64,000 nt of DNA. Source: Pseudogymnoascus verrucosus (lineage: Eukaryota). A model generated the notes under the pieces. The model had not been told where the DNA came from. It saw only the letters and a program-made list of their open reading frames with translations, and ran no database searches. Every line of letters starts with the position of its first letter. Position 1 is the first letter of the stretch. Positions 6,051-62,600 of this stretch are shown in pieces. Location: the NCBI GenBank assembly GCA_001662655.1, contig KV460219.1. The stretch is one strand, 5' to 3'. The translations under genes were made by a program, and so were the position numbers.

Positions 6051-9000
6051 TTAGAAACGTACCAGCACATCCAAGTCATCCAGAACATCCTTATTCTCAT
6101 CCAACCTGAAATAAATCCTCCTCAGATCACTCAGCGCTGATAATACACCCCTTCCATCATTAACAGGCGCAAGCTCTTTCATGGCATCCAGTAGTATTAC
6201 CGCATACTCTTTTGCCTCGCCCCACCGGTTTTGTGCACTGCAAAGATCTTCCAGGCGCTTTATTGTTGTCAGAACATATGGATCAAGATGCGTGGTTGCA
6301 GCTTTTTTCTGTGACGCCAGGACGCCCAGATATAGCATTTCTGCGTTATCAAACTCCTTTTGCTTGACAAGAGTCTTTGCGAGGGATTCCATTGCATCTA
6401 GGGTCAGCGGATCATCATCGCCCAAAATTCGAATCCGCGACTCCATGATCGTCAGTTCGAGCGCCTCTGCTTCATCCAGTCGACCTTGGTACCAGTAAAT
6501 ATTCGCAAGCTTGACTTTGGTGTCAATGTAGTCCTCGCTGTCTTCACCCGCCATTTCGAGGTATATCTCTAGCATCTCCAATCTCAACTTTTCAGCCTCG
6601 CCGTACTTCTTAATCTCCACATAAGTATATGCTAGGTTGCTCATTGATTGCAACGTTTTTTCGTCCGCTGGACCCAAAGCTTGTCGCCTATATTCTAAAA
6701 TAGTGACGTCAAAAGGTTCACATTCCTTATACTTCTCTTGGCTGCTATATGCCTCGCAAAGGATATCCATAGATTCGATAGTGTCCGGATGGTCAGCCCC
6801 GAGAGTTCGTTTTGATATATCGACAACCTGCTTCTGGAGTTCTTCAACTTCTGGCCAGAGCTGTAAAAAGTGGTATGCAGTGACGAGTCCCTGCCTAGCT
6901 GCATTTGTCTTTGTATGCTCGGCGCCGTATTTCTCAAGTGTTCGTGCGTACATTTCATGGGCAAAGGGCTGTACATCTTCCCAGCGTTCCATGTCAGCGT
7001 ATACAATCGCAATGGTTTCGATGCTTTCTAGAGTATCCTCGTGCGAGTCTCCGAGTAGTTTTCGACGACCCTGGAGTGCCTGTTCATATAGTGTTGCCGC
7101 CTCTTGCAGATTTTCTAAACTATGGTGCAGAGACGCGAGATCAAATAGAGCCCCTAAAACATCCTTGTTCTCTTCATCGTACAAGTTCCGATATCCTTCT
7201 AAAACTTCTTTCTGCAAAACCATAGCTTTGTCAGCTTTCCCGATGGCAGTATAGTCATATGCCAGACATTGCATCAGATGCAACGCGTCGTGTTTATCCG
7301 ACCCTCTGACTTTACGTTCAATTTCTAGCGCCTTTTCATGATAGTCGCAGGAATCCTGTCGATTTCCCGCATTTATGGCAGCTGTTGCGAGGAATTGGAG
7401 GCATGTTCCAACTTCGAGACTCTCGGCGCCAAGGAGTTCTTCATAGATAGCAAGCGCTCTTTTCACCGTAACCACGCCATCTTCAGTTCGACCAGCTCGT
7501 AAATACATTCCCCCTAGATTTACTAATGCCCTGGCCACATCACCATCCACCTTCCCATGGGTAGCTTCGAATGATTGCAGGGCTTTCTCCTGTAACACAA
7601 TTGCTTCTTCGCTTTTGTTCGTTTTATTGATCAAGACAGCGAGCTCGGTCTCCGCCGACAGCGTTTTTGGATCGTCATCGCCGAGAGTAGTTTTATATGC
7701 GGACGCTATCTCTCGACTTACCTGTACGGCTTTCTCGAAGAGCTCCTGCTTGTGGAAGTTTTGGAGCAACGAACGTTTGGTTTTCAGTGTCATATCATCT
7801 GTTGGACCAAGCGCCTCTTGTAGTAGATCAACGGCCTGCTGCCAAAGAATATTGGCTTCCAGCAACCGGCCTTGGTTCTCGTACGTTTCAGCAAGCCCCG
7901 TGAGATTAGTTTGTGTTTCGAGGTGTTGAAGTCCATGTTTGGCTTTCAAGTTCTCCAACAACTTAAGTTGAATGTCGGACGCCTCCTTAAACTTTGATAG
8001 TTTATTGTGGAGCTGTATAAGAACCGCCATTGCTCTCATAGTGTAATATGACTGCCCTCCCCTAGTCTTCATGGCATGCTCCATGAGGCTTTGATATATG
8101 AGCTGCGCATTGTCCCAACTGCTATGCCTTTCGTGGGTTTGGGCGAGATTGAGAAGGGAGATAAAATAGTCAGGATAAGCTTTCTTTTTGATGTACTCAA
8201 GAATTCCCAGCAAATATATGACATCTGCTTCGGCATCGTCCCAGCGTCCTAACCTACAATCTGTGTGCGCGATATTGAATTTTACCATTAACACATCGCG
8301 ATTGTGAAACCCGACACCATCTCTGGAACCCATCGTTCCGTGAAGCTCCTTCTGATATTCTAAAGCTTCTTCAGCTTTTCCTTCAGCTGCATCTACAAGA
8401 GACAGGTTAAGCCGTGCGATGTCCGTGTTAAGGTGATTTTCCCCTAGGCTCTTGAGGGCAAGCTCGAGCACTTCTTGTCCATAACTTCTTGCTTCTTCCA
8501 GGTTTCCCGCATGAAGTAAAATCCGGACGCGACTACTGCGTGACTCAAATAGATCTGCATCGTCGTCTTTCAGGTTCGCTTCCCGGTACTCATAAACAAT
8601 CCGTTCTAGAGCCACTGCCTCCTGGAATTTGTCTTCGAATAACTGATTAGCTTCCGCAAGTTCGGAAATGGCAAAAATTGTGTCGGGGTGGGCCTCTCCC
8701 AGATCTCTTTTGGAGTTCTCCATCAGCTGGGTGTTCATCACCAGAAGCTGTTCTGGGGAGTCATCTTCTTCGGGCATGGATCTGAAAAACACTTCTTTCG
8801 TTTCTTCCAACGACGTAGCTACACCTGCAACGCTAATCATCTTCATCTGGAGATACCCAAATATCTTCCTACTATTTTCGAAAAATACCGTGTGTTCTGG
8901 GTCCTCAATTACATAGTCTGGATCCATAGCATCAGGATGTAAATGTCCTACAGGTGTCCGATTTTCTGAATCTGCAGCCCACACGTCTGCACCATTCTCG

Positions 9001-12000
9001 ACGAGAGCAACAACTCGCTCATAGTTGCCAATCATGGCAGCTACATGGAGTGGAGTTCTTCGGTGTCCAGGTTCAACCTGATCGAGTAGCATCAGATAAG
9101 TTTTTTCTGCTTGCAGTCGATGTCTTGATATATCAAAATCTCTATTTTTCGCATTCGGACTTAGCTCTGGACAACGTCCTACTACTCGAACGAGTGACAC
9201 TACATCTAACTCGTCGATAGTGCAGATTTCTGCCCCTGCTTCAACTAGTGCCGCAATAGCTTCTATCTCTCCGCTAATGCAAGCCCAGTGTATTGGGGCA
9301 TAGGGGTTTTTGCGATCCATAGGGGTGTTAATTAACGCACGCACCCTATCGTGTCGAAGAAGGTGAAATAGTACATGAGATCCATTGACTTTAGAGGCTA
9401 GGCGAGCAGCGACGTGTAGGATGGTGGTCTCTGTTGGCGATGTCAACTCAGCACCGCGCTCGATTAAGAGATCAATAACATCGCCATCTCCAATGGGGGT
9501 CATGATGGCCAACTCAAGTGCATACCGCTCTTGGTATATTGCATTCATGTCTGCGCCATGATCTAGCAGAGTGCGAATAATCTGATAGCCTCCAGGAATC
9601 ATAACGGAAGAATGAAGTGCTCCGATAGCGCCATCTTCTTCAATATGCGGGGCATTCACGTCAATATCACCACTTTCTAGCACGGCTTTGAGAGTCTCCT
9701 CATCGCCGTAAAGACAGGTTTGATTGAGGAGCACGGGCGAAGCCTTTATCTTTCCGGAACTCAGCAGCAGCTTCATGATCCGACCGCCTCGTCCGTCATT
9801 CCTTTTGGCTAATATATTCACGACCCTTTCAGTAGAGATGTTGAGCTCAGCGCCACGGCCAATAAGGACTTCCAGCTGGTCTAAATTTATCTCGCAAGCG
9901 CAGTCGTTAATTGCATTGGCTAATGGTGTGTGACCAAAGTCATCAGGCACATTGATATCCGAGAAGGTTGACTTGAGTACCATATCGAGTGTAGATTCGA
10001 ACTGCGATCGAATTTGGTTCCCATGTTGCAGTAGTGACTGGACACCGTTCGATAGTCCTTGATGTAAAAGAGGACTTTGCATACCGCTAGATGGATGAGA
10101 TTGAAGGAAAAGTGTTGTCAATTCTGGGAAGCCAAGAGAGACGGCAAGATCTAGAGGTGTCAATACCCCGCCACGTGTGGCGGCACCTGCTTTAAGCAAT
10201 ACCTCAATCAATTTATAGTATCTGGCCTGTACAGCAAAGTGTATCGGCCTAAACACAAAGCGAATCGAATGCTCTCGTAGCTCTAGCACCTCTTTCGAGA
10301 ACAAGTCAATGTCCCCCGAGTGGTCTTGAAGAAGCTTGACCATTGGCTCAAGTTCGTCTTCCTCGAACATGATCATCCAATGAAGCGGCGCGGGCCCTTT
10401 ACCGCCCAGGCGCTGTGCAGTTGCACCGTTGCGAAGAAGGAACCGGACTATATCCGAATTGGCGCCTCGGCATGCAGCTGTCACAGGTGTCCCGCAGCCT
10501 TCGGAGTGAAGGTTAACATCAGAGCCGGCATTAACAAGAAGCTCTACAATTGGGAGGCATCCTAGTCGTGCGGCTAAGTGAAGCAAAGATCCAAACTGCG
10601 TAGAATCGAGGGATGAAACCCTCCCAACCAAGGATGAGATATTGATGCCCCCCCTTGTAATTATAGTCTGTAGCTCATCAATTCGTACGAAACTAAGATC
10701 CTTCGCAATCAGAACGTCGTCCGAGTAGAGATCAAACGGCATCTGTAGAATAGACTGTTGAAACAAGGACTCGTGCTTTCGAATACGTGCTGAAAAGTAC
10801 TTCTCGGCTGGAAGTCTAATCAACTGATCTTCCGCCTCGAGCATAGGGTGGCCATGTGATAACGTCTGGGGAAGCTCTCGTGAGTACGATTGATGTATTC
10901 TATGGCAAATTCCCACGGCCATAGGAAGTTTCAGCGACGCAGCTTCCCGTAGATATTCAAGCATCTTCTCCTGGTCGGCTTCGACTCCAAATCCATGGAG
11001 GTAGCACATGCTCAACTCGAACAAAGTTCTCCCGAGAATGGCTGGATCTGTATGGGTAGAGGCCATCGATTGCAATCTCGCGAATACTCGTTTCTGCAGA
11101 GGAAACGGGACTGTGTTTGCAAGTGACTGTCTCCTGTTAGCTACCTGGGTTGATGGCGGACTAGTTCCGTACTTACATCGGCCCTATACAACGACCATCT
11201 TTCGAGCGTTGAAAGTTGAGAAGTCCCAAAAGAGGATATTATTGTCATCTTCCTATAAAGCATATCTCATCAGTAAGCGTTTAAACCTTCCATACAGAAA
11301 CTCACTTTTCTTTTGCAACAAATTCTCGTTCCAAGTTGAAAAGCTTCATAACTTCCCCAATAGTTACTCGATCTGCTGCATCATCCCTCAAGGTAGACTC
11401 CAACACATTTTGCAGCAATGTAATTTTGGCTGCATCAGCCGGTAGAAGATCTTGAGTAGCCAGCAATGCAAGGCGCAGAAGATCATCTCTCGGCAACCCA
11501 TTAAGCCAGGTGATGGGATCGTCTCGATGTTGACGGTCAGCATATCTTTTTCCATCCTGCACAATCTCCCACACCATCAAGCCATAAGAAAAAATATCAC
11601 ATTTATAGTGATCTTCTCTCATCGTCGAAATCGACTTTCCCTGTCGCACCGCCGGCGGATTAAAGATAGTCGTCCCGATATACCTCGACTCATCATCAAG
11701 AATCGAGTGTCCAAAATCCGAAAGCTTCGCCACAATCTCCCCACCATCAGTCTCACAAACAAGCGTATTCTCCAGCTTCACATCTCCCTGCGCTATCCCA
11801 GACGCGTGCAACGCAGCCAACCCATTCGCAATTCCGCTGCAAAACCTGATCTTCTCCACAACCGACACCTTCTCGCCCGCCTCCCTCTTCTTCCCCAGAT
11901 ACCCCCTCAACGTGCCATGCGCCGCAAACTCCGCAACAAGATACAGCGATATATGCTCTCCCACAGTCCGCGACCCATACCCAAGGAGCTGAACAATATT

Positions 12001-12411
12001 CTCACACTCCCTAATCGGGTTATGGGTCAGCACCCTCAGTTCCCGGAGCACAGTCTCAATCGAACGCCTACTCTCCACATCATCCACCTTCCTCGACGGA
12101 TGCTCAGTAGTCTTAAGATACTTAATAGCCAAAACCTTCGCATCGCCTTCTCTATTCACCTCCCCCCTATCAACGCGATAGCAAGCACCCTCTCCAATCC
12201 CGAAGGCCGTGCCCGTCGGCATGAAACTGGTGGTTTTAAACCGATCCAAGTCGGGGCAATGAAGCACAAATTGCCAAACATCAGCGAGATCGAGACCCGG
12301 CGGGGTAGCTCCGGCGGAACTAGACCCGGATGTATCAGCTGCAGCTGGGTAGTCGTTGGAGTCGGAGAGCACGGTGCGCGCCGTCGCCTCGGTGAGGTCG
12401 TAGATGTCCAT
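6051..12411 (-). CDS. Protein kinase - Sel1-like repeat - ankyrin repeats - kinesin-light-chain-type TPR array, ~2085 aa, 3 exons (12411-11306, 11252-11177, 11126-6051)
   Basis: Introns 11305-11253 (GTGAGT..TTATAG) and 11176-11127 (GTAAGT..GCTAAC..ACAG) join the 455-aa and 1674-aa ORFs in frame. Kinase motifs GEGACYRV, LAIK, QGDVKLEN, DFG, DIFSYG; Sel1-like LSMCYLHGFGV; ankyrins LLHLAARLG, TPLHVAAMIG; TPRs LGxxHPDT. The first ATG in the frame is 12411. Confidence 0.85.
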
Positions 12412-12892
12412 CTTTATGATCCGAACCAACTTGGCAGTGTAGCGCCCACGCCTGGCAAAGGTTGATGATGAGGGGTACCCGTCATTATGAGGGTGAGAGC
12501 TGAGTATAGTGTGAGTGACTTGTTCGTGCGGCTGAAATATTGGCTGCGTGCTGGCCGCGTGGGGGACGGGACGGACCCTGTCAGCTGTCAGGTCTGGAGC
12601 GGCCCATGAGATGGTGGCGGACGCTTTGACTCCGCTGTCATTCGGCTGGTATCCGTAGTCGGGATTCAAGCTTCAAATACAGCACAAGCCGCCGAAATAT
12701 AAAAAACGTGGTAAATGCAGTGATGCGCTCCTATAATTCCAATATATCGTCCCCCGCTGGCTAGATCGCTCGCTATAAAATCAATCTATCAATCAGTATA
12801 CACTCTACGCTATCCCGCTCCAAAATGAACGAAACAAATGGGTATTATATCCCCCTCTTCCCAAAACCACACATCTTCCCTACGATTTTCCT

Positions 12893-17933: not shown

Positions 17934-19478
17934 GTCGATCGAAGCTATCTCCGACAGCTACAACGGGCAACAACAAGTGAAATTGACGCGATGTGGATAT
18001 GCTGATGCGAATGGAGATGGAAGTGTAAACTCGCGGTTGAAGATGCAGGGTGTAGCAGATCACAATGGGGTATTTCCAAGCAAGAGCAACTGTCACCGAC
18101 ACAATTTGACGAACGTTCGTCTCATAGGGCAGCAGTCGAGGCCATTGGAGCTGAAGTTGGGTTGGGGGTTCCAGGGTGTACCTTAGCTCACCGTCGCAAA
18201 CGAAACGCAGGGACCCTCTCACGGCACAACTTTGAGGGAGTGCCGCGCGCCTTTAGGGATGGATATAGCAGAGAGCAAGCGTTAATAAGAAGCAGGAAGC
18301 AAAAGATGAAGCCTGAACTGTATGTATCAATCACAGACAAATGTTTACATTCTATTAACAGCAAGTAGAGGAAGGGCCAAGGAAGTCCACGGTAACTAAC
18401 CTACATGGTACTCTATCATGAGTTGGCAGTTGGCATGCATATATTCCCAAAGTAGCGCAAGGCTGGGTATAACAAGGGTATAACAAGAGTATAATTATGT
18501 ATAATAGTGTATAATAGTGTATAATAGCATAATTATATAACAAAGAGTCAGCGTCTAAGATGCGTATAACAAGACACGACATAGAACAAAACAGCACAGC
18601 ACAGCACAACATAGATAGGCACAGCATTGTACAGCCAGCCAGCCAGCCAGCCAGCCATGGTCTAAGTGTACACATAGTATCCACAGTAAACATAAAATCC
18701 ACAGGTTATCCCAGGCTGCTGACTAAGCAGGGCGTTCAGCCTTCCAGAATAATACCCAGTAACTTGATCAGGAATGGCGCCGGTACTAGCCGTAACCTCA
18801 AGGGGAAAGTACGGGGTATATCTTATCCTATCTTATCCTATCTTATCCCTAGTAAGTAAGCCTAATAAAGACGGCGCATCAGTTATTCCGTTCCAGATGA
18901 CCTAATTGACCTAATAGGTAAGGCGTCAATCTGCCGTCCGAGACACTCTTGGCTTCAGTGGCTACATGGGCTACGTACCACTTACTCCGTACACTACGAA
19001 GTACCACACCAGACGGCACTTTTGTATGAGCTACGTACTGCAACTCCACCACTACCACTGTAACTACGGCTGACTTTCCCCAAGGAGACAGATCGCTCTG
19101 ATCAATAAAAGGCAACGACAACTGCAACTTCAACTGCTTCTGCATATCTCACGCTCTTCAATTATCTTCTATACCCTCTCTCATCAGATGTTTCTGTAAG
19201 AGGGCTTCGCTTTTATTATTCTTATACATGTATTTCCAGCGTGGCGACTAGGTTGCCTCTTTTATCCTTACAACTGTAATTTGGAATCCGCCCCCAGAAA
19301 CGATTAATCCGCCCATTCACACGACCCCCCTTACGAACACTCGACTTGCCTCGAAGACACGACTCCCGACGTCAATGGGACACCCGACACGCTCTTTATA
19401 CACATACACAATTGACCTGGGGAGGCGCCGACCGCTCCCACGCCCCCCACTCGACTCTTCCGCCCCGACAGACTCGCC

Positions 19479-22072
19479 ATGAGAGGCATATCCCTTGTGG
19501 GGCTCTTTGCGCTCACATGCTTCACCAGCGCCGCGAACCTCCTGCCACGAAATTACGAAGCCAGCGATTACTATGTCCTCCACCTCGACTCTGAGGCTGC
19601 GCCCGCAGAAATAGCAAAGCGCCTTGGCCTATCCCACGAGGGCCAGCTGGGCGAGCTCGAGGACCACCACATCTTCTCTGCAGCGAGACACGAGGACGAT
19701 CGGGTGCAAGATGCGATCACGGCGAGGAGGAAGCTGCGGAAACGAGGCGCGAGTCAGTCCGATGTGTTGGATAGCGTGAAGCTTGCGCAGAAGCAGAAGC
19801 TAAAGCCACGGATGGAGAAGAGGGGGATAATTCCTGTGACCAAGGACAGGCCATCAGGCGCATTCCCAGAGCGAGGAATTGAGGTCGAGGACCCGGTCGG
19901 TGTGGCCAGGCAAGCCGAAGTAAAAAAGATCCTCGGAATTCACGATCCGATATTCAACGATCAATGGCATTTATACAACAACAAACAGCTGGGACACGAT
20001 GTGAACGTCACGGATGTTTGGATTCAAGGAATCACTGGCCACAATGCTACGGTGGCTATCGTCGACGATGGGCTAGATATGTACAGTGAGGATCTGATGC
20101 AGAACTACTTTGCTGAAGGCTCCTACGACTTCAACGACCCCGGTCCAGAGCCAAAGCCGAAGTTGAGCGACGACAGACATGGCACGCGTTGCGCTGGGGA
20201 GGTTGGAGCTGCCAAGAACAACGTCTGTGGTGTTGGAGTAGCCTATAACTCCAGGATTGCCGGGATCAGGATTCTTTCGAAGCTCATCACCGATGCGGAC
20301 GAGGCCATCGCCTTGAATTACGCGTACCAACAGAACCAAATTTACTCCTGCTCGTGGGGCCCTCCAGATGACGGAAAATCAATGGATGCGCCAGGTATTT
20401 TGATCAAGAGGGCCATGCTTAATGCTGTACAAAGGGGCCGAGGAGGGCTGGGTTCTGTCTACGTCTTCGCGTCTGGAAACGGCGCTGCGTCGGAAGACAA
20501 CTGCAACTTCGACGGCTACACGAACAGTATCTACAGCATCACTGTTGGCGCAGTTGACCGTAGAGGCGATCATCCCTACTATTCCGAAAAGTGCTCAGCG
20601 CAACTCGTCGTTACGTACAGCAGCGGTGGTGGCGACCAGATTGTCACCACCGACGTTGGCGCAAACAACTGCGCCACAACTCACGGAGGAACCTCTGCAG
20701 CTGCACCTTTAGCTGCCGGCATCTTCGCACTGGTATTGTCCGTCCGACCTGATCTGACATGGAGAGACATGCAGTCTCTCGCAATGCAGACTGCCGTCAC
20801 TATTGATAGCGCAGACGACTGGCAAACCACGACCATCGGCAAGAAGTTCAGCCACACCTTCGGATATGGCAAGATTGACTCCTGGGCCATTGTCGAAGCC
20901 GCAAAGACCTTCAAGTCACTCAAGCCCCAGGCGTGGCTCTACTCCCCTTGGATCAAGGTCAATAAACCAATCCCGCAAGGAGACCAAGGCCTCGCAGTTA
21001 CGTACGAGGTGACAGCCGACATGCTCAAAGACGCCAACCTTGAGCGACTCGAACATGTGACCGTGACGATGAATGTCGAGCACGGCAGACGCGGAGATCT
21101 CAGCCTCGATCTAATCAGCCCCGACAACCTAGTCAGCCACCTCAGCGCAACCCGCAAGAACGACGATTCCCCCAACGGCTACGCAGACTGGACCTTCATG
21201 AGCGTCGTGCACTGGTAAGCACCTACCCCCCATCCCCCCTACTCCACCACCACTAACACACACACCCCAGGGGCGAATCCGGCATCGGCACCTGGAAACT
21301 CATCCTCCGCGACACAACCGTCAACGAGCACTCTGGCAACTTCACAGACTTCCACATCAAGCTCTGGGGCGAATCCATCGACGCCTCCAAAGCCACCCTC
21401 CTCCCCCTCCCCAACGCCAACGACGACGACAACCACGACGCCGACAAGCCCTCCTCCACCATCTCCGCCACCGTCTCCACCACCTCCCTAAACCCCGTCC
21501 CAACATCCACCACAACCCCCCTAACAACAGACCAACCCAACCGACCCGTCCCCCCGAAACCCACATCCACCCTCACCTCCTCCCCCACCCCCACCGCACC
21601 CAGCGACGACCTCGCCGCCTCCTCCACCGCCGCCCCGTCCTCGTGGCTTCCCGGCTGGCTACCGCGTTTCGGCTTCGGCCCAAAGACAACGATCTGGATG
21701 TACGCCGCCACTGTCCTCATCGTAGGTTTCTGCATCGGGTTAGCTATCTACTTCTACCTCGCGCGCCGCAAGAGGCTGCGCAATAGCGCGAGGGATAACT
21801 ATGAATTCGACCTCATCCGCGATGATGAGGAGACGGAGGGGTTGACGGGGGGGAGGCCGAAGAGGAGGGCCGGGGAGCTGTATGATGCGTTTGCTGCCGG
21901 GAGTGATGAGGAGGGATTGAGTGATGTGGAGGAGGAGGGGGAGGAGTATCGGGATGTTGCGAGGAGGGGGGGGATGGAGGCGGAACATCATGTTATTGGC
22001 GGGGATAGTGAGAGTGAGAGTGAGGATGGGGATGATGGGAGGGGGGAGAAGGATGCGTTGAGGGGGGAGTAG
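19479..22072 (+). CDS. KEX2: Kexin, subtilisin-like proprotein convertase, 2 exons (intron 21215-21270)
   Basis: Signal peptide; catalytic VDDG, HGTRCAGE, GNG and GTSAAAP; P-domain with RRGD; splice gives VHW|GESGIGTWK; Ser/Thr stalk, TM helix and acidic tail with YEFDLI. Confidence 0.96.
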
Positions 22073-25769: not shown

Positions 25770-26381
25770 ATGAAGGTTGTCTCAGTTTTCACTGCTCTCA
25801 TCCTGGCGTTCTTCGCCAATGTTGTCTATTCTGCGGCAATTGACAGCTCTCTCAACTCTCGCGACGTAAATGTGACAGAGGCTGCCGAATTTGCCGGGTT
25901 CGGTGATGTCGTCGCCTACGCCCCTTCCTGATCGTCGCCGCAAGATCAATTTCTACAGCAATGGTGTTTTAGACAGTAGCGCTATTGAGACTGAAGATGG
26001 AGGTACGGTTTTGCATTCACCCGCGGCATAGTGGCTAACAATCTGATCATTAGCAACCTTTTTTGAGGCTGATGGCACTGAGGTCGACCTCAACGAGATT
26101 GATGAGATTCTATCCAAGAGGGTGTCTAAGTGGAGACTTGCCATCAAGTTCGCCAAGTTGATCGCCAAGTACGGCAAGAAGGCGTGGAACTACATCTACT
26201 GCGTCGGAACCAGCGCCATGCGGAAGTGCGGTGATGAGGTGGGCTCTTTAATTGGATTCTAGTGTTGAGGGACATATGCTAATATGCACAACAGTACCTC
26301 GGATGCTCCGCTTCTGGTATCCCACCGTGGAAATGCGTCGAGGGCATCGTCTGTGTTGGCGCTGCTGCCAAGGGGTGCTAA
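25770..26381 (+). CDS. Secreted prepro-peptide releasing a 67-aa cationic 6-Cys peptide after KR; pro-region interrupted by an apparent +1 frameshift near 25921 (or a cryptic intron)
   Basis: ATG 25770 gives signal peptide MKVVSVFTALILAFFANVVYSA; introns 26003-26053 and 26239-26294; mature VSKWRLAIKFAKLIAKYGKKAWNYIYCVGTSAMRKCGDEYLGCSASGIPPWKCVEGIVCVGAAAKGC*. The unspliced first frame stops at TGA 25929-25931. Confidence 0.7.
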
Positions 26382-26998: not shown

Positions 26999-28736
26999 AT
27001 GTCTGATATCCTTCAGATCCCTGGCGCATGGAACAGCGCATGGGAGGCGCCCTCTACAACACCGTATGACATCGTCGATGCGCACCCTCCTGTACCTCCC
27101 CAGCCTTCCCCACCTATATCGCAAAGTCGTCGTCCTCCTCCACCACCCCCGCCTTCACAAAGTCGCCGACCTCCACCCCCCCCTCCTTCGCAAACCCGTC
27201 GTACACCTCCACCTCCTCCCTCGCAAAATCGTACAGTATCGCCATCTCATCCATCACAAAGCCGTTCAGAATCTCCACCTCCTCCCTTGCAAAGTCAGCG
27301 TACACATCCATCACCTCCTCCCTCGCAAAATCATCGAGCATCACCCCCGCGTCCCTCTCAAAGCCGCCCAGAATTTCCCCTGCCTCCTTTGCAAAGTCGT
27401 TTAGACGCTGCTCTGCCTCCCTGGCAAGGCCTTGTTGTACCTCTCTCGCCTCCCTCGCAGAGACGCCATGTATCTCTTCCTACCATACCGCAGAACCGTT
27501 CGGAATATCCCCCGCCACTCTGGCAGGGTCGCCTTGCAGAGAGACGTCGCGGATCTGTCCCCACTGCAACACAACCCGGTGTAGAGTTCGATTTTTTTGC
27601 CGATAGCTCCGAGGATGAAAATGATACTGCCATTGAAGACCAAAGAAAACCAATCGTCATCGCAGTCTTTGGGAAGACTGGCACCGGAAAGACATCCTTT
27701 ATCAACGCGGTGACAGGAAGGAGTCTCAAAGTTGGGCATGGTCTTACTTCCTGTAAGGTTGCCTATAACGCTATAGAAGTATTGAATAAAAGCTAACTCA
27801 AACATGAATAGGTACCGAGGACGTTCTCGCCGTTTCCTGCCGCATTGGAAGCGAAAATATAATTCTTGTTGATACCCCGGGGTTTAGTGACACGCATCTT
27901 ACTGATACAGAGATTCTGAGACGGATTGCTGGGTGGATGAAAGATTCATATGACGATGGATTTCTCTTGTCTGGGATAATCTATCTCCACAACATCAATG
28001 ATATCCGCATGGATGGTCCTAGTCTCAAGAACTTGCGCATGATGCAAAAACTCTGTGGAGCTAACTCTCTAAAAAACGTTGTTCTGGCTACTACAATGTG
28101 GGAGAAGGTGGATATGAGACAAGGAATGGAACGCGAATTGGAGCTACAGAAAAACTTTTGGAAAGATATGATCAATGAAGGCTCGACTGTTGCAAAGATA
28201 ATGACTGAAACTGGTGGTGAGGCTCGCGAACTAGTCGTATCACTGCTAAATAACCAGCCGCTATCAACCAAGTTGCAGGAAGAGCTTCAAAGCGGAACAG
28301 CACTTGTTCAAACGGAAGCCGGAACCGAGATCAGGGCAGAAATGATAAAACTGATCCTGAAGTTGAGGAATGCTCACGAGGCTGATATTGCTGACCTGAA
28401 GCTTGCCCAACAAGCACGTAAGAACTACCCTTTTATAATGTGGTTATTGATCGCATTGCTATAGACAGTGACGCGCAACTAATAAACATGACAGACGACC
28501 TGAAGCTTGCGAGACAAATCACAGCTGAAATCCAGGAGAGTCAACGCAGGATAAATCGATTGGAGGCCGAAAAGACAGAGTTGCAAAACCTAAACCTGAA
28601 ACCGTGGCCAAGGGTAAAAAGAAAAGGTATTTTCGGAATTGGCGGTTATCATTGCCGAGTGTGCAATCAAAAGACAAATCAAGTTGGAAGATGGACATGT
28701 AATGGTTGCAAGAATCAGCAGAGGAATATGTGGTAG
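26999..28736 (+). CDS. P-loop GTPase (AIG1/G-domain-like) with Pro/Ser-rich repetitive N-terminus, coiled coil and C-terminal CxxC..CxxC knuckle; introns 27753-27811 and 28418-28494
   Basis: G1 GKTGTGKT, G2 SCT across the splice, G3 LVDTPGF, GIIYLH, G4-like TTMWE; CRVC...CNGC at the end; N-terminal PPPPSQxR repeats. Confidence 0.85.
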
Positions 28737-37694: not shown

Positions 37695-38802
37695 CTAAAG
37701 TCCCACACAAGCATACGTATTAGCCCAGAGCCCCGTACAGCTCGCGCCAGCAGCCGGGTTCCACTTGATGAAGTTTGCAACGGTGATGCTGTACAAGCGC
37801 GTGATAGTATCGCAGCTCTCGCCCGTCTTCACGAGATGGAACTTTTTGCAGTTGGTGACCATGCCAGTTTGGATGGGCTGTGGTGTGGGATTAGGGGTGC
37901 TCCCAATGACGCCGGTGCAGATGTTGTAGTCAGCCCACATACCCGTACACGCGGTACCGCCGATCTGTGTGTTCCAGGTCGCAAGCTGGGCGACAGTGAC
38001 ACTTGCAGAGGACGCAATGGTCACGCATGTGTCTCCGGCCTTAACCTTGTAGAATTTGTTGCAGTTTGTGACCATGCCCGGCTGGACGGGCGTGGGCGTA
38101 GCAATGCCGTTGCCGGGACTGGTTGGGGTGCCGCCGATCACACCCGTGCAGATGTTATAGTCGGCCCAGATGCCCGTGCAGGCCGTGCCGCCGATCTGCG
38201 TGTTCCATGAAGCGAGCTGGGCGATGGTGACGCCCACTGAAGAAGCAATGGTGGTGCAGGTGTCGCCGTTCTTCACCTTGTAGAAGCGGTTGCAGTTGTC
38301 GACCATGCCGGGTTGGACCGGCTCGGGGGTCGTGACGCCGTTGCTCGGCTTGGTGGTCGTGGGCGGCACCGCAGTGCTGGTGGTTGCCGGCTTGGAGGTG
38401 GTCACCGGCTTGGAGGTTGTGGATGTCGTGGATGTAGTGGTCGGGATGCTGGGAGCGGGACCCTCGACGCAGTAAGAGTAGTCCGCCTTCCAGTCGGCGC
38501 AAGACTTAATCGACGGGTTCTGGTGAGGAGTCAGCACAAAATCTGAGAGTGTAGGGGGCCTCGGAGCAAGACTTTCGGGTTAGGCTTACCCATGCAGTCA
38601 ACTGGCCAACAGAGATCCCGACAATGAGGAGCACCGTGTCGCAGCTGATGCCATCATCGCTGTTCCACCACAGGGTGCAGGCCGCGGGCGTGTTTGGGTC
38701 GTAAGAGTAGAAGGGTGTTGAGCTGTCGAAGCGCTTCACGCCAAGAGCAACGCTATGGGCGGCGAGGACACCGATGGTGGCAAGGATGGAAAGATGGAGC
38801 AT
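37695..38802 (-). CDS. Secreted LysM effector with four fungal-type LysM modules (intron 38589-38520)
   Basis: Signal peptide; repeated CNxFYKVKxGDTC...WN...C...W..YxxCxG modules separated by Pro/Thr linkers; modules 2 and 3 are near-identical. Confidence 0.92.
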
Positions 38803-39844
38803 CGTGGTGATGGTGGGCTACTTAGATTATGACTGTGCCTGTGAAGATAAGGAGAGAGCTGGTTGTTCCCGATAGTCCAGATGTGAGTCTCTCTCTACCT
38901 GGGCAAGTGTCTGCTTTAATAGGCAATGATTGTTTATTGATACTCTAGCATCAACGAGCATCGTGTCACCCTGGGTAGCCCAGGGCATCTTCCGGTCCCG
39001 GAGTTGTTTACCTTCATGCTGAGCTCTATGTAATGCTAAGCCCTATATATTTGTTAATGAAGCTATATGCATGCCATCGATAAAACTCGCGGATATTACT
39101 TGAGCTGCTTTGAGTTGTTCATCCGATAAAGGCTCCACTGTTAGATCTAGATAGTAGTGGTAAGTGCTATGTATAGCTAGCTAGTGGAGAGTACAGTATC
39201 GGCTAATTAGAAGTTGTGGCCGTGGGGTGGGCGGCGATGTGACAGCGGGAGCTGGGGGCGGGAAGGTGGGGGCGAAAACGTCTTGGCTTAAATCCTTCTA
39301 AAGTCTCTTCAGTCTTGGCTCTTTTAGGCAACACCATCAGGACCAATAAGAGGTTCAAGTCAGACTGGCACTCTTAGTTAGGATTCGCTTGTTAAGATCC
39401 TCTACAATATCTCCGGGTCGAGATCCCGGTGTCTTTGGACAGTGAGAGACATGAAGTAATGGCCCCTTTACTTCTTTTTGCACTGTTTGTTTACTGGTTA
39501 GCGCTTAAGGATAGAGTTACAGTAGATGATGTAGGAACGTGTAGAAAGGCGTAGGTACGCTGGTGCCTAACTATGGACCTGCATTTTCCCTACATGCAGG
39601 CCAACACTAGTTATTAGCCCTATACATGTACTGTGTAGTTCAGTAGTTAGATTCAAGTCACGAGTGTGAATATTGTGAGATATGCTTATGGCCTTTAGAG
39701 TTAATGAATTGCGTGAAACGATCTTTATACCAATAGAGTTCAACATGAATTATAGTACAATTATTACAGTATAACAATAATAGTATATTATTCTATCAGT
39801 GGACCCTAGCTCAAAGAACATTCAAAGAACAATCGATATGGAAA

Positions 39845-40476
39845 TCAGAGATCGTTAGTGGGTGGCGCAGACCTTACCTCAGTAAAGCGAACTGCGGTCG
39901 AGTTGTTCTCATTACGCCCTGGGCACGAGCTCAGCGTAGCCTCAATGTGCGGAAGCTGAGCCACAGGCGCCGTGCTGAATTTGATATACCGCGATCCATA
40001 TCCGTTAAGCTCATCCAACCACGGAACCCCAACGTTGTTCCTCGACCGGGTTCGACTTACCAGCAAAGCACTCGCACGGAATGACCACATCCCACAATAT
40101 TTAGTACGTGTCTGTGGTCCTATTGGTCATGTTAACCGCGTTAAAATGAAGGGACTGCTTGCGAGGGTCCTTCATGAAGTCCTCACTGAGATCGGCGAAC
40201 CGAGGTCGGCGTACTGCGTTGCCCACAAGAGCCTGTTCTCCGAACTTAGCGGGATGCTAAGGGACTCCACCTGCGCACTGAGGCGGACATTTAGCGTCCA
40301 GGCACTGTCGAGATTGCTGATGTTGAGGACGATAGGGAAGTGCTATGTGAGCGAGTAAGTCTCATTATAGCGCGGTAAGATGAGTTCCACTTAGAAATTA
40401 GCGGCGAGCGTTCGCTCGGCGCACGCGATCTAGGCTAGGGGATAGAGGAGGGTGAGGAAGGAGAAGATAAGTGCAT
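39845..40476 (-). pseudogene. Degraded secreted-protein gene resembling the fungal family I recall as DUF7136
   Basis: Minus-strand translation FSFLTLLYPLA*IACAERTLAANF*VELILPRYNETYSLT*HFPIVLNISN...NMTNRTTDTY*ILWDV...IKFSTAPVAQLPHIEATLSSC, with frameshifts; these four stops are TAG/TAA, the expected product of CAG/CAA C-to-T changes. Confidence 0.65.
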
Positions 40477-41271
40477 TATCGCGGCAATTGTGAGTATAGA
40501 GAGAGCTGCAGCGGTGATCAGATAGAGAATGGAACAAGAGAATTGCGAGCCATACAACTTCGATAAGAGCTGACAAAGAAAGAAAGATTCCGAAAGTTGT
40601 AAAATGGGTACAAAGCAGGGGGCCTCGTCTGACATTTCAATAGGAATGGATTGCAATGGCTAAGATATGCCAAGCTCTTCGTGGGGGCTAAGCTCCCCCT
40701 GACAGTGCCAAGCAGATTGGAGAAATCCTCGAGCTCCACTGACCGCCAAGCATACGGAGCGGAAATCGAGCCTCCATTAAGAAGCCATTATTGACTTTTA
40801 TAGTCCTAATAGATTAAAATTCAATAGTCTCTCTATCTCGCCCCCATTAACTGTGCCGTTTAAACCGTTTAACTGCAGATGCTAAGTTGTTTGCTAATGC
40901 CAAGTTAGCTACGGATTCAGGCTGTGATGCCCAAATAAATATTCACACTTAGGGCTCTGTGGGCTTCGCGAAGTGCAGGATTACCATCCCTACAACATTA
41001 ACCAAGATTAACGAACTCAAGGTAATTAGGAAACAATGCTGACAAGACGACAGGATGCAGCCTTTCGCCCCCATACTATGCCGAGCAGCTTGCGGGCTGA
41101 CCGAGCTGCGAAGAAGTCCAATCCATATCCATATAATATAACAATGGTAGGAGACCTTGAGATTGTTCATCACCCACCCGCCTTTCTCATCTCTCTCTTC
41201 GCCTTTTCCCCTAGAGCCCTCCGCGCTCGTTGACCTTACTGAGCTCTCAAGCTCTTGTCTTGGCTCCCATC

Positions 41272-44200
41272 ATGGGCCGACTTAACTATAAGCTTCTGCC
41301 TTGGTTAGGGTGGGCACTGGCGGGTCTCGGTCTCAATGGTGTCGATGCCTTGACGCCACTGCGAGACCTATGCCCGGTAACCTGCCTGGAGGCCGGCCCT
41401 AATCCGTCCAACTGGTCTGTTGTCGCCGACATCTCCCAACTTCAGGCGTGTCAGAAACCAATGGTCTTAGACTTTTCAGTCAGGATTCCTCTTCAACGCA
41501 AGCAGCATATTCGAGTCTGTAACGTGTTTACCAACGACTTCGACAATCCAGCCGGATCCGATACGACCTCAGTCTTCGCCACGGCTGATGTTGAGACCAA
41601 GCAAGTCTTCCCCCAGCTAGCCTGGACGCCCGCCGCATCCGAGGACGAGATTGGCGGCCGGCTCGTGGGCCAGAGCATTGGGCACTTGAAGAGCTATCTC
41701 GCAAACAACCACCAGGCCTCGAAACCCGCGAGCCGGATCATGCTGTTCGGAACGGTATCTGACACCACCACAGGCGTCTACGTTGGCGCCAATCTGCTCG
41801 GCTCGAGCATCGCCGGGAATCTCTTTGACTCCTTCCTGAACAATGTGTACGGAAACGGTATTGCCGACTCTAAGGCCTCCCTAGTCCAGCTGTGCGAGGG
41901 TCGCAGCGGAGACGACATCTTCGGCCTCATCGCGGTCTCCAGCGCCAAATTCTCCACGGTCCACGACGCCGTCAGCAGCTGGTCAAACGGGACCTGCGTC
42001 GACACGACCTCGTACGCGAAGACACGCGAGCTTGGCGCCACAGCCATTGCCGTCATCAAGCCAGTGGTCGCGCCGACCCCTAGCAACAACACAGCAGCCA
42101 TTTTGGGACGGGCCGATGCCTGCCGCATCATCAGAGTCGACGACCAAGATGACTGCGGCAAGCTCGTCACCCGGTGCGGCGGCGGGCTGACTGCGGCGAA
42201 CTTCTACAAGTATAACCCCAGCTCCACTCTGTGCTCGAAGCTCATGCCGGGCCAGCCCGTCTGCTGCACTGCGGGCGAGCTACCTGATATCAAACCGAAA
42301 CAGAACGCGGACGGATCGTGCGTCGCATACCAGATTAAAAAGGACGATAACTGCAGTAAGGTCGCAGTTGCTAACGGCCTGGTGGTCACAGATCTCGAGG
42401 GCTTCAACAATGATACCTGGGGTGCGTTTTGTCCACCCCTCCTATCTCCTCTCCAAGGCCCTGCCCCACTGACTAACAACGCAATTTGACAGGCTGGAAC
42501 GGATGCGACTCGGGCTTCTGGACTGACAACTGGATCTGTCTCAGCAAAGGCACGCCACCCTTCCCCGCGCCAATCCCCAACGGCGTCTGCGGGCCTCAAA
42601 AACCCGGCACAACCAAGCCTAGCGGGTCAACCTCGAAGGACTGGCTGAAACTTAACCCGTGTCCTCTGAATGCGTGCTGCAACGTTGTAGGTCCACGCCT
42701 TTACTCTCGTCGTGCGGGCCCTTTTTTCGGTATCATGACAGATGCTAATGAAGATAACGCAGTGGGCACAATGCGGTACGACAGCCGACTTCTGTATTGA
42801 CACCAGCACAGGCCCACCAGGCACAGCTAAGAAGGATACCTATGGCTGTATCTCCAACTGCGGCATGAGTATCATTCAGAGCGGCCCGCCGGCGCAGTTC
42901 AGGAAGCTTGGTTATTTCGAGGGCTTCAACCTGGGTCGGGACTGCCTGAACATGGACGCCTCCCAGATTGATCCGTCATTCACCCATGTCCACTTCGCCT
43001 TCGGTATGATCACCCCCCAGTTCGAGATCTACCAGGAGAACCAATACGCCGAGTTCCAATTCCAGCAGTTTAAGAAAATCCGTGGTCCGAAGCGGATTAT
43101 TTCGTTTGGTGGCTGGGTCTTTTCTGCCGAGGCCCCTAACTACCCCATCCTCAGGGACTCCGTCAGCGACGCCACTAAACGCGAAAAGTTTGCTACTAAT
43201 CTTGTGAAGTATGTCGTCGATAACGGCCTCGATGGTCTTGACATTGACTGGGAGTATCCCGCGGTGAGTTGACAGCCGTTCCGTTCTCCTGCAAGGCTGG
43301 ATACTAATCTAAATCCCTTCACTAGGCGCCTGACCTGCCCGATATCGAGCCTGGGGACCTTGCGGAAGCCACAGGCTATTTACGCCTCCTCGCCCTTATC
43401 AGATCGAAGCTGCCTAAAGACAAATCGCTATCCATTGCAGCTCCCGCCTCCTACTGGTACCTGAAGCAGTTCCCTATGAAGGCCATATCAGAACTTCTCG
43501 ACTACATCGTCTACATGACCTACGATCTTCATGGCCAGTGGGATGCTGGCAACCAGTGGTCCAGCCCCGGCTGCCCAAGCGGAAACTGCTTGCGGAGTCA
43601 CATCAACCGGACAGAGACGCTGAACTCCTTATCAATGATCACCAAGGCCGGCGTGCCCTCAAACAAGATCCTCGTCGGCGTCACCAGCTACGGCAGAAGC
43701 TTCCAGATGGCCGATCCGTCTTGCACCGGCCCCAACTGTCTGTTCACCGGCGACAGAACGACATCATACGCTCGTAAGGGGCGGTGCACAAAGACAGGCG
43801 GCTATCTAGCCAATGCCGAGCTCAACGAGATCGGCGGCCGCACGTGGATGGACGTTGAAAGCGACTCCAAGATAATGGTCGACGGGGACCTCTGGGTGTC
43901 GTACATGGACAATGACCTCAAGAACAAGCGCACACAGCTCTACCAACGTTATAATCTCGGTGGCACGTCAGATTGGGCTGTGGACCTTGTCAGCTTTGTA
44001 GAGCCACCCAGTTCCCTCGGCGGACTCGGCTGGCCGAGGCTTAAGACGGATATTCGTGCTGGCATGTTTTTTGAACAGATCAGCTGCAATTCCGCGGAAA
44101 TTGCGCGCACTGGCACCTGGGTCGCTAAATCTTGCGACGTGGACGAGATTGGGAGCTGGACACACTACACGCCCAAGCAGCGGTGGGATGCCCTCGATTG

Positions 44201-45859
44201 CCCGCATGCCTGGGACGACGCGATCAAAGTGTGGCAGTCATGCCACGAAGGACAAGGTGATGGTATTAGGTTTACTAAGGCCATATCCGAATTCATACAC
44301 GGAATTCAGAATTCTGTAAGTAGAGCCTGGCATTAGACCAAATGGTCTAAATTCTAACGAAGACTTTGTGTAGAATTGCGACGACCTGTCGATAGAGACA
44401 AACTGTCCTGCTATGTTTTGTAAAGAGCATAACGCACCTGAGGTCCCGGAAAAAGAAAAGACAGGGGCCTGCACATACGAGATTTGGAACTCGATATCTG
44501 AGCTCTCCAGAGTGAGTTAAATAACCATAGCTCTCTAACTTGACTGTTGATTGCTAATCCTGTGTACCTCTTGGTAGATGATTAAAAACTACTACTATTC
44601 CTTAAGTAAAGCTGGAGATGATCTTGGAAGCACAAAGGAAGAATTCATCAGCATCTTTGCCCCAAAGTCGGACTCCGGGATAGAGTTTCTAATGCTCTTG
44701 CTAACCTTGATTCCAATTCCCCTCAATGCGGGGGCGGCACGTTTCTTTGGAGGTGGTAAGTAATTGTGCCTATGCCTATACTATGTGTAGTTCAGGTCAA
44801 CCCCAAACCCTAACAACTGAACCTCCAACTGCTAGAATAGGGCTAACACATTTTCACAGGGCTTGCAGGCAAACTCCTTGGGGGAAGTCCTAGTGCAGCC
44901 CAAAAATCCGTGTGGGAAGCCGCAACCTCCAACATCGTCAGTGCTGGTTCCTCCATCGCCAAAGACGCACTCGCCAAGGCCAAAGACGGTCGCTCAGAGA
45001 TCGCCTTTAACGCCATCTTTGATACCCTAATTACGAGCTGGATGTCTCAGACCGACTTGCTTATAAGGTCGATCTTCAATGGAGATAAAGACAGCATCAG
45101 GAGATTGAGCGAAATATTCAGCAACGGCAATTTGATCGACGGCAAATTAGACAACGGTATAACAGATTCTACCAATGGCCACACGGACAGCTGGAATCGG
45201 GAGAAGAGTATCCAGCGCGCCTTCTATGCCGCCGCGATTCCTGCCGCCTGGGCCGCCAACCGCCCGGCACCCATCGTCATCGACTTCGGCCCTAGCTGTG
45301 AGATCGATGCGCGTAACTACTTCAATGAGCCGCCAAACATCTACAACACAGGCTGGAGGTGCATCGACGGGCACTCCTACATCCTCGCCGGTGTCCGCGA
45401 TGGCCCTCAGGAGGCGTGCGGTCAGCAAACCCCTGGCAACACAAACCAGTGCCCACCTGTAAAAAAATGGACTTTCAACATGCTCAAGGGCATGGAAGTG
45501 ATCAGGACGGACGACAACAAGTGGGGGGGCGTTACAGTGGATGAACTTATCAAGGGGTTAGTATCAACTAAATCCACCAACTGAGAAACGAATGTGGACT
45601 AACTTTTTTTTTTTTTCCTCTTCGCAGCGCCATCAATACGTACAATATGAACGACAAGAAAAACATCATGGACGCCTCAAGAAATGTGCCGGACGCTACG
45701 AATAAGACTATTACCGAGGAGTACGCGTCAGATAAGCTGAACATTAAGAGGGCTGGCCTCATCCGCATCCCCATCTGCAGCCCTGAAGAAGCGACGGCAA
45801 ACCTCAACAAGGGCCGGAAATACTATGGTGACTCCCTTAACTACCCTTGCAACGCATAA
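41272..45859 (+). CDS. GH18 subgroup-C (killer-toxin alpha-like) chitinase with 2 LysM, a hevein-like CBM18 and a long C-terminal extension; introns 42422-42492, 42687-42762, 43264-43325, 44316-44373, 44512-44577, 44756-44859, 45557-45627
   Basis: All seven GT..AG introns keep frame; CPLNACCNVWAQCGTTADFC (CBM18), SFGGW, DGLDIDWEYP (DxxDxDxE), YMTYDLHG, GGTSDWAVDL. Confidence 0.92.
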
Positions 45860-62255: not shown

Positions 62256-62600
62256 ATGAAACTTACCACCACCCCCCTCTTCCTCACCCTCCTCGCCCTA
62301 TCCATCCACCCCTCATCCGCAGCACCAGCAGCGGATTTCGAGTGGGAATGGGCCCTAGGCAACCCGTGCAAGACACCTGGTCAAGTGTGTTGCAGCGATT
62401 ACCACTCCAAACTGTGCGTAACTGACCACTTTCCCCATCTTACAGAGTTACAGAAGGCTGATTATCTCCGGCGGGATAGGCTGAATCAAGACATGTATGT
62501 TTGTGCTGGAAGCCCACCAAGATGGACGCTTCAGGCGACTTGTGGTCCGAAAACGTGGTGTTATGTCGATTATGGGAAGAATTGGGCTTGGTGTGGGTAG
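62256..62600 (+). CDS. Small secreted Cys-rich protein, tandem paralog 1 (probable in-frame intron 62414-62479)
   Basis: Signal peptide; C-terminal YVCAGSPPRWTLQATCGPKTWCYVDYGKNWAWCG; a GTGCGT..GATAG segment at the same position and phase as the paralog introns. Confidence 0.85.
   Translation: MKLTTTPLFLTLLALSIHPSSAAPAADFEWEWALGNPCKTPGQVCCSDYHSKLCVTDHFPHLTELQKADYLRRDRLNQDMYVCAGSPPRWTLQATCGPKTWCYVDYGKNWAWCG

Follow-up and report, generated by a model that had tools for sequence, protein, structure and literature searches.

Homology indicates that the locus at positions 25770–26381 of the window, the 64,000-nt stretch of Pseudogymnoascus verrucosus contig KV460219.1 that was analysed, is an allele, decayed by a frameshift, of a three-exon gene that filamentous ascomycetes conserve. 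The gene belongs to a new family of pro-peptide-masked, cysteine-rich secreted peptides with an unusual fold, a folded pro-domain and a spread across fungi and animals. Intact members are proposed to be Kex2-released, disulfide-held cationic antimicrobial peptides that are masked by an acidic pro-domain and would permeabilise microbial membranes, a reading to which we give a probability of roughly 55% on the sequence data. The features of the locus are as follows:

25770..26002 (+): exon 1, defined by homology (ortholog tblastn and alignment), with the signal peptide, the linker and the first strands of the beta-rich pro-domain; frameshifted
25770..25832 (+): signal peptide of ~21 aa, with the cleavage site placed by eye; the hydrophobic N-terminus is found in full-length members
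25866..25944 (+): intron-like stretch (GTAAAT..AAG), coding in orthologs, which could serve at most for cryptic splicing that rescues the frame; run X4 lacks the donor
25922..25931 (+): frameshift within a short run of C, followed by an early stop (TGA, 25929–25931); ortholog frame change at residue 51/52, same letters in runs X1 and X2
26003..26053 (+): intron 1, 51 nt, GT..AG, position common to homologous loci
26054..26238 (+): exon 2, with the end of the pro-domain, the KR site and mature residues 1–39
26116..26121 (+): Lys-Arg, predicted Kex2 cleavage site; Arg invariant in 25/25 close members, KR/RR in 41/49 fungal-type domains
26122..26199 (+): cationic amphipathic helix-Gly-helix, mature residues 1–26, containing eight residues identical to aureocin A53
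26221..26223 (+): codon for mature residue 34, altered here; Trp in 25/25 intact close relatives
26239..26294 (+): intron 2, 56 nt, GT..AG, position common to homologous loci
26295..26381 (+): exon 3, with mature residues 40–67, including four Cys, and the stop codon

The introns, Kex2 gene and secreted enzymes of the window are fungal in character. The ATG at 25770 starts a hydrophobic N-terminus, and both introns (26003–26053 and 26239–26294) have branch sites. The same two intron breaks were found by tblastn at all eight fetched homologous loci. The first-pass annotation had described a spliced gene. The orthologs have two introns rather than three, and the intron-like stretch at 25866–25944 is coding in them. 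The middle exon is matched by 23 of 34 candidates (best E-value 5e-33), a level of sequence similarity far beyond chance. It is also 100% identical in the NCBI model P0004 (VE01_03915, Pseudogymnoascus verrucosus), a 122-aa "hypothetical" protein without a signal peptide, so the gene, first described as hidden with no ORF showing the peptide, is not wholly hidden.

Residues 1–51 of the ortholog P0008 align by tblastn to 25770–25922, and residue 52 onward aligns from 25924 in another frame with no intron between. The signal peptide and the acidic pro-region ending in KR that were originally noted are therefore both present, but not in one frame (frameshift near 25923). Exon 1 lies in one piece at seven of the eight fetched homologous loci, the eighth containing only the end of this exon (tblastn). 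Read from the ATG, this copy stays open for 53 codons versus 85–100 in all five homologous loci tested. The frame break is present in contigs of runs X1 (possibly the source) and X2, from two studies; the contigs of run X3 do not span it. In run X4, a relative, the frame and the Trp codon are kept. The first base of the last-intron donor (window 26239) is changed in that run, possibly representing a separate second loss in the genus. Two columns that are invariant in 25/25 intact relatives, a pro-domain Gly and the mature Trp, are altered in the P. verrucosus copy; such changes number 0–1 in intact congeners and 2–6 in four more distant members.

This copy is very probably non-functional. It could instead still be functional if 25866–25944 were spliced as a cryptic intron, which would skip the frameshift and give a 141-aa precursor with a shortened pro-domain. 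The stretch has GT..AG ends, carries a CTGAT branch-like site 16 nt before its acceptor and restores the frame, and the locus has kept its signal, its KR site, both genuine introns and every one of the six Cys. However, the same stretch is conserved coding sequence in the 164–167 aa precursors of other Pseudogymnoascus, its candidate donor is lost in run X4, and its splicing would remove the first pro-domain strands. The otherwise invariant mature Trp is altered too, and AAG acceptors are rare in ascomycetes, making rescue by splicing improbable. As a probably dead gene, this particular copy matters little.

In intact orthologs, the precursor is 163–182 aa long and consists of a signal peptide, a pro-region of ~80 aa containing an acidic beta pro-domain, KR and a 67–70 aa six-Cys peptide. 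The mature peptide of the locus is 67 aa long with 11 K/R, 3 D/E and 3 Trp, and has Cys at positions 27, 36, 43, 53, 59 and 67. Its hydrophobic moment peaks at 0.72 over mature residues 9–19, and the N-half is amphipathic. The counts initially reported for a 67-aa peptide with a Trp/Lys-rich amphipathic N-half and a six-Cys C-half were thus confirmed from exons 2 and 3. Among 25 intact close members, 23 columns are invariant, including all six Cys, which presumably form the disulfides suggested at first pass. Mean column identity is 0.58 in the signal, 0.41 in the linker, 0.71 in the beta pro-domain, 0.83 in the mature N-half and 0.71 in the mature C-half, and the cationic amphipathic helix segment is the most conserved part. 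The mature part is ~60–68% identical between Leotiomycetes and Aspergillus.

From 85 domain matches, 69 distinct mature domains were kept, 49 of them fungal-type and 20 short-pro. Short-pro members have the mature part only, following a signal and a short spacer. KR or RR precedes the mature part in the fungal-type proportion given above versus 0/20 short-pro domains. This proportion and the invariant Arg support the predicted Kex2-type processing, and the signal peptide and conserved dibasic site expected of a Kex2-processed secreted peptide are both found. In P0008 the net charge is −11 for the pro-region and +7 for the mature part. The mature net charge of fungal-type domains has a median of +6 (range 0 to +12, n=49), and that of short-pro domains a median of 0 (range −5 to +5, n=20).

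A ten-sequence profile identified 55 proteins among 6993 candidates, and a 25-sequence profile searched against 1.84 billion representatives returned 108 cluster representatives at E≤0.001, 58 of them at 1e-10. Organism names were looked up for 20 of the 98 new representatives. The family covers six Pezizomycotina classes, mites and bdelloid rotifers, and so includes animals, a point missed at first pass. With class labels that we assign from general knowledge, the named members are from Leotiomycetes (Pseudogymnoascus, Cadophora including Cadophora gregata, Leptodontidium, Oculimacula, Hyaloscypha, Marssonina), Eurotiomycetes (Aspergillus section Fumigati, A. candidus, Penicillium), Dothideomycetes (Didymella, Pyrenochaeta, Sporormia, Bimuria, Paraphaeosphaeria, Curvularia, Coniosporium), Sordariomycetes (Verticillium longisporum, Drechmeria, Torrubiella), the lichen fungi Lignoscripta and Pleopsidium, and Tuber. 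Torrubiella has five near-identical tandem models on one contig. The named hosts mostly dwell in soil, litter, roots or lichens. Two unnamed proteins, P0156 and P0184, contain two or three tandem mature domains with Thr-rich spacers or tails.

The first-pass statement that no fungal family of this kind had been described agrees with our searches: neither Pfam nor NCBIfam has a family for it, sequence comparison gave no solved relative, and the open-access literature searched gave no description. The accessible part of 10.1101/2024.01.04.574150 has no mention of aureocin, bacteriocin, saposin or Kex2, and that of 10.64898/2026.09.03.749242 gave no term matches. The family may be present, unnamed, in orthogroup tables of fungal antimicrobial surveys. 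Its members are annotated as "hypothetical" or with names carried over from fused neighbours; P0016, P0058 and P0062 are mislabelled as rhamnosidase, the first of them being a fused model that takes in a rhamnosidase gene. The gene is fused to the next gene in five Pseudogymnoascus models and one Aspergillus model and is truncated in P. verrucosus, and this mis-modelling helps to explain why the family has no name. In the window, a P-loop GTPase with Pro-rich N-terminal repeats follows at 26999–28736 (+), and the GTPase is the fusion partner in the five Pseudogymnoascus models (P0006, P0011, P0014, P0047 and P0049), which reflects synteny and an annotation artefact. The Logan-derived proteins P0021 and P0091 continue across the intron positions, where other Logan calls enter the intron, a difference suggesting that Aspergillus makes spliced transcripts.

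AlphaFold2 analysis of P0008 predicts a small, acidic, four-to-five-stranded beta pro-domain (strands 47–91) and a helical mature part. A model focused on the mature part of P0091 has six short helices with a mean pLDDT of 80 (78–80 in five models), and helices 1 and 2 break at the conserved Gly. Neither model places a strand in the mature part. Fold searches against solved structures gave no clear match for the mature part, a result compatible with a new or saposin-like fold. Of the checks suggested with the first-pass annotation, profile and structural searches returned many fungal relatives and a helical mature part, but no prokaryotic relative and no clear solved match. Predicting the pro-domain and mature part as a complex gave a score of 0.36, with the best of three controls at 0.01, contact agreement between runs of at least 64% and partner pLDDT of at least 69. 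The partners are two halves of one chain, and in the benchmark scores of ≤0.60 occurred in 5/78 solved pairs and in all four passing mismatches of 180; the prediction thus gives weak support for docking of the pro-domain on the mature part. ESM Atlas provided weak leads at 0.81–0.87, one of them to a cluster with 12% PF12192 (calcium-binding protein), the lead to the CBP cluster being at 0.81. Sub-threshold look-alike clusters of ~80–90 aa were also seen in Nematoda, Streptophyta and Basidiomycota, and according to these the family may reach beyond the groups listed above.

Under the antimicrobial reading, the precursor of intact orthologs would enter the ER and form three disulfides, and the acidic pro-domain would shield the cationic face along the secretory path. 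Kex2 would then cut after KR, as the conservation of the site suggests, and the Lys/Arg/Trp-bearing helix-Gly-helix of the freed peptide could bind and permeabilise anionic microbial membranes, with the Cys-rich half acting as a protease-proof scaffold. The role would be in competition among soil, litter and root microbes. This reading is supported by the layout kept in the 25 intact close members, the strong conservation of the mature N-half, the opposed charges of pro-region and mature part in P0008, the cationic fungal-type median, the predicted split into a beta pro-domain and a helical mature part and, weakly, the complex prediction. A cationic amphipathic peptide with an acidic pro-domain is the usual layout of masked membrane-active peptides. 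The patchy spread, the Torrubiella tandem copies, the paralogs in the mite Oppia and the loss in this copy fit a gene involved in conflict, and the mainly soil, litter, root and lichen habitats of the named hosts favour the reading too. The main facts against it are the neutral animal forms and the high conservation. Short-pro domains are neutral in the median and lack KR/RR, so cationic membrane attack is not a family-wide property, and the mature part is unusually conserved for an antimicrobial in an arms race, a possible sign that it has a fixed partner, either a protein or a lipid.

These two facts are the strength of an alternative in which the compact disulfide domain would be a non-lytic secreted ligand (a signal, carrier or inhibitor) of a specific receptor, enzyme, lipid or metal and would contact it through the cationic helix. 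High conservation across classes, neutral or acidic animal members and the tandem-domain forms with Thr-rich tails all favour a ligand, as do, weakly, the Atlas leads including that to the PF12192-bearing cluster. The cationic, Trp-rich, amphipathic mature part of the fungal members and its acidic pro-domain speak against it, and we regard a non-lytic role as unlikely, though the strongest competitor to membrane attack. Still less probable is a role directed at a host, with the peptide as an effector or cytolysin against the cells of plants, invertebrates or animals, much like Kex2-processed pro-domain effectors or candidalysin. Aspergillus section Fumigati, Verticillium longisporum, Cadophora gregata, Oculimacula, Drechmeria and Torrubiella carry the family, but it is found equally in saprobes, lichen fungi, a truffle, dung and soil fungi, mites and rotifers, which have no common host.

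The 20 short-pro domains come from 18 proteins, six of them from named mites or rotifers. The Rotaria member is present on seven contigs (longest 777 kb), the Tyrophagus putrescentiae member on a 4.1 Mb contig and two Oppia nitens paralogs on a 15.6 Mb scaffold. The Oppiella nova member lies on a 4.3 kb contig, and bacterial contamination has reportedly been noted in that assembly. Fungal-type and short-pro profiles match each other at 99.5% (E 3e-22) over 66 columns with the six Cys in register. A tree of 59 of the 69 mature domains (10 near-copies dropped; 68 columns, long branches, unrooted) puts all four domains from named mites within one supported group of 13 short-pro domains (95/95), and the rotifer domain within another, three-member group (98/96). 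Each of these groups is distant from any named fungus, making simple fungal contamination unlikely. The gene has probably passed sideways among soil eukaryotes, for which the unrooted tree sets no direction. Transfer from fungi to animals is suggested by the patchy spread and by gene uptake in bdelloids, for which these rotifers are reportedly known.

The A53 family is the sole Pfam and NCBIfam match of the middle exon (E 0.018 and 0.016–0.047, respectively). The A53 and lacticin Q stretches quoted at first pass proved correct in alignments to PDB 2n8o and 2n8p: A53 Ile10–Ala17 is the same eight residues as here, and lacticin Q has a close variant. The AKYGKKA helix is conserved among homologs as a segment (0.83), but the exact 8-mer is limited to the close clade. 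The A53 profiles score 13–15 bits over 14–16 positions (best 15.3 for Pfam and 14.8 for NCBIfam), within profile positions 3–18; the curated cut-offs are 25 bits for PF11758 and 27 bits for NF033881, and true A53 members that were fetched score 40–70 bits. PF11758 matched 3/25 close members at E≤1 and 0/26 diverse members at E≤0.5, and the NCBIfam A53 model matched 0/50 members.

The A53 group is described in the accessible part of PMC6131525 as leaderless, Trp-rich and disulfide-free, 43–53 aa long, with a conserved Ala11–Leu29 core and a membrane-permeabilising activity. All nine fetched A53 sequences have 0–1 Cys. Four of the defining features are absent here, namely a score above cut-off, the leaderless state, the disulfide-free state (judged by the six invariant Cys) and the Ala11–Leu29 core, and a cationic, Trp-rich, amphipathic character is found in fungal-type members only. 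A53 has a four-helix saposin-like fold; the model here is all-helical with six short helices, and the fold searches gave no clear match. The peptide is not an A53 family member, and its likeness to A53 is short and weak. As a physicochemical analogy to a membrane-permeabilising peptide (PMC6131525, accessible part), the sole profile match favours the antimicrobial reading, although the near absence of matches among the diverse and close members counts against the analogy. By this analogy, the family may work like A53.

How the likeness arose is a question of origin, and an A53 ancestry would be compatible with the antimicrobial reading. In that scenario, the helix-Gly-helix of an A53-type gene entered an early ascomycete and gained a signal, a pro-domain and a Cys-rich half. 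Besides the eight identical residues, a profile-profile comparison with nine A53 genes gave 38% and a score of 21.3, exceeding the reversed profile (10.3) and all 60 column shuffles (maximum 15.1), but the nine sequences were partly gathered through the shared motif, which inflates the match, and column shuffles lose the helix periodicity. Without the exact motif, the comparison still gives 22% for 42 divergent domains and 24% for the 20 short-pro domains over 17–19 columns. The match is mainly one helix-turn-helix and ends ~7 residues into the 19-residue core Ala11–Leu29 (PMC6131525, accessible part), and the 8-mer is confined as stated. No short bacterial protein was evident by sequence among the 108 matches, none was confirmed in prokaryote genomes, and neither source yielded a Cys-free bacterial relative. 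The N- and C-halves occur together in every kingdom, so they constitute one domain. The proposal of a bacteriocin-derived chimera is accordingly not supported, given the sub-threshold A53 score, the absence of most of the A53 core and the lack of such a bacterial relative in those searches. Convergence is the strongly favoured source of the shared helix-aromatic-Gly-helix motif, and inheritance is correspondingly improbable. Separately, three tandem A53-family genes were seen in an uncultured Actinomycetota genome (G003; L013 1465–1865 and L032), and an A53-family bacteriocin gene on a 5.4 kb contig binned as Saccharibacteria (L027 1435–1563, −); the closeness of the latter to the Streptococcus ratti gene raises the possibility of mis-binning.

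Upstream of the peptide gene by 3.7 kb, the window encodes a kexin (Kex2) with Peptidase_S8 and P-domain (19416–22072, +), the type of protease that would process the peptide. A secreted prokaryotic-type phospholipase A2 (PF09056; 23309–23944, −) with a KR site and an acidic C-terminal tail is divergent from the peptide gene. Neither gene is kept beside the homologs at the homologous loci examined, so both are treated as chance neighbours. Further downstream, ORFs at 37695–45584 encode in a row a LysM repeat protein, a LysM and GH18 chitinase-like gene product and a further secreted protein, an arrangement that we take to resemble killer-toxin-like chitinase clusters. A small secreted Cys-rich protein with no Pfam match is encoded at 62256–62600 (+). 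By eye, an ankyrin-like and TPR-like ORF of 1710 aa adjoins a protein kinase ORF (6051–12672, −), and the two are perhaps one NLR-like gene.

If the antimicrobial reading is right, it adds a class of fungal peptides without a Pfam or NCBIfam profile or a clear solved fold, and provides a direct lead toward a stable antibacterial scaffold. Being conserved in a major human-associated mould as well as in fungi of roots and crops, the family would bear on how fungi shape their bacterial neighbours. The mite and rotifer members are a testable case of a defence peptide common to fungi and their grazers. A fuller version of this reading, possible but doubtful, would see an undescribed antimicrobial class that has a helical fold of its own, held by disulfides, and a beta-sheet pro-domain as dedicated inhibitor. 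It would be old in Pezizomycotina, unnamed in Aspergillus fumigatus and crop-associated fungi, and passed in at least two horizontal transfers to soil animals that eat these fungi and dwell among them (sarcoptiform mites and bdelloid rotifers), with a retuned neutral version. Its boldest form, which would have the killing helix hairpin come down in eukaryotes from A53-type bacteriocins, is very improbable.

Among known systems, A53 and lacticin Q (PF11758, NF033881; PDB 2n8o, 2n8p, 6sif) are likewise cationic, Trp-bearing and helical, with an amphipathic helix and an aromatic-Gly turn followed by K-A. They are leaderless and without disulfides, whereas the family has a signal, a pro-domain, KR, six Cys and introns, with most of the A53 core missing. 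Saposin-like pore formers (NK-lysin, amoebapore, caenopores) and Histoplasma Cbp1 (PF12192), to which the weak Atlas lead at 0.81 points, are small, all-helical, six-Cys proteins made as precursors, like the family here. Their Cys spacings differ from that of the family, which is C-x8-C-x6-C-x9-C-x5-C-x7-C and confined to the C-terminal 41 residues, the first 26 residues being Cys-free; SapB-type Pfam models and PF12192 matched none of the 25 close or 26 diverse members. As with SnTox3, SIX1 and candidalysin, the mature peptide of the family would be freed from its pro-protein by Kex2-type cleavage, but the searches gave no sequence or fold match to them, and the family is not tied to pathogens. 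Plectasin-type prepro-defensins and the AFP/PAF, bubble and NFAP2 types have mature folds that are beta-rich or CS-alpha-beta. They are, like the family, secreted, cationic, Cys-rich and patchy, and carry a pro-peptide (PMC13525654, accessible part). The mature part here is by contrast predicted to be strand-free, without the beta-sheet core of CS-alpha-beta defensins and AFP/BP/NFAP2, and its pro-region is a folded, conserved domain.
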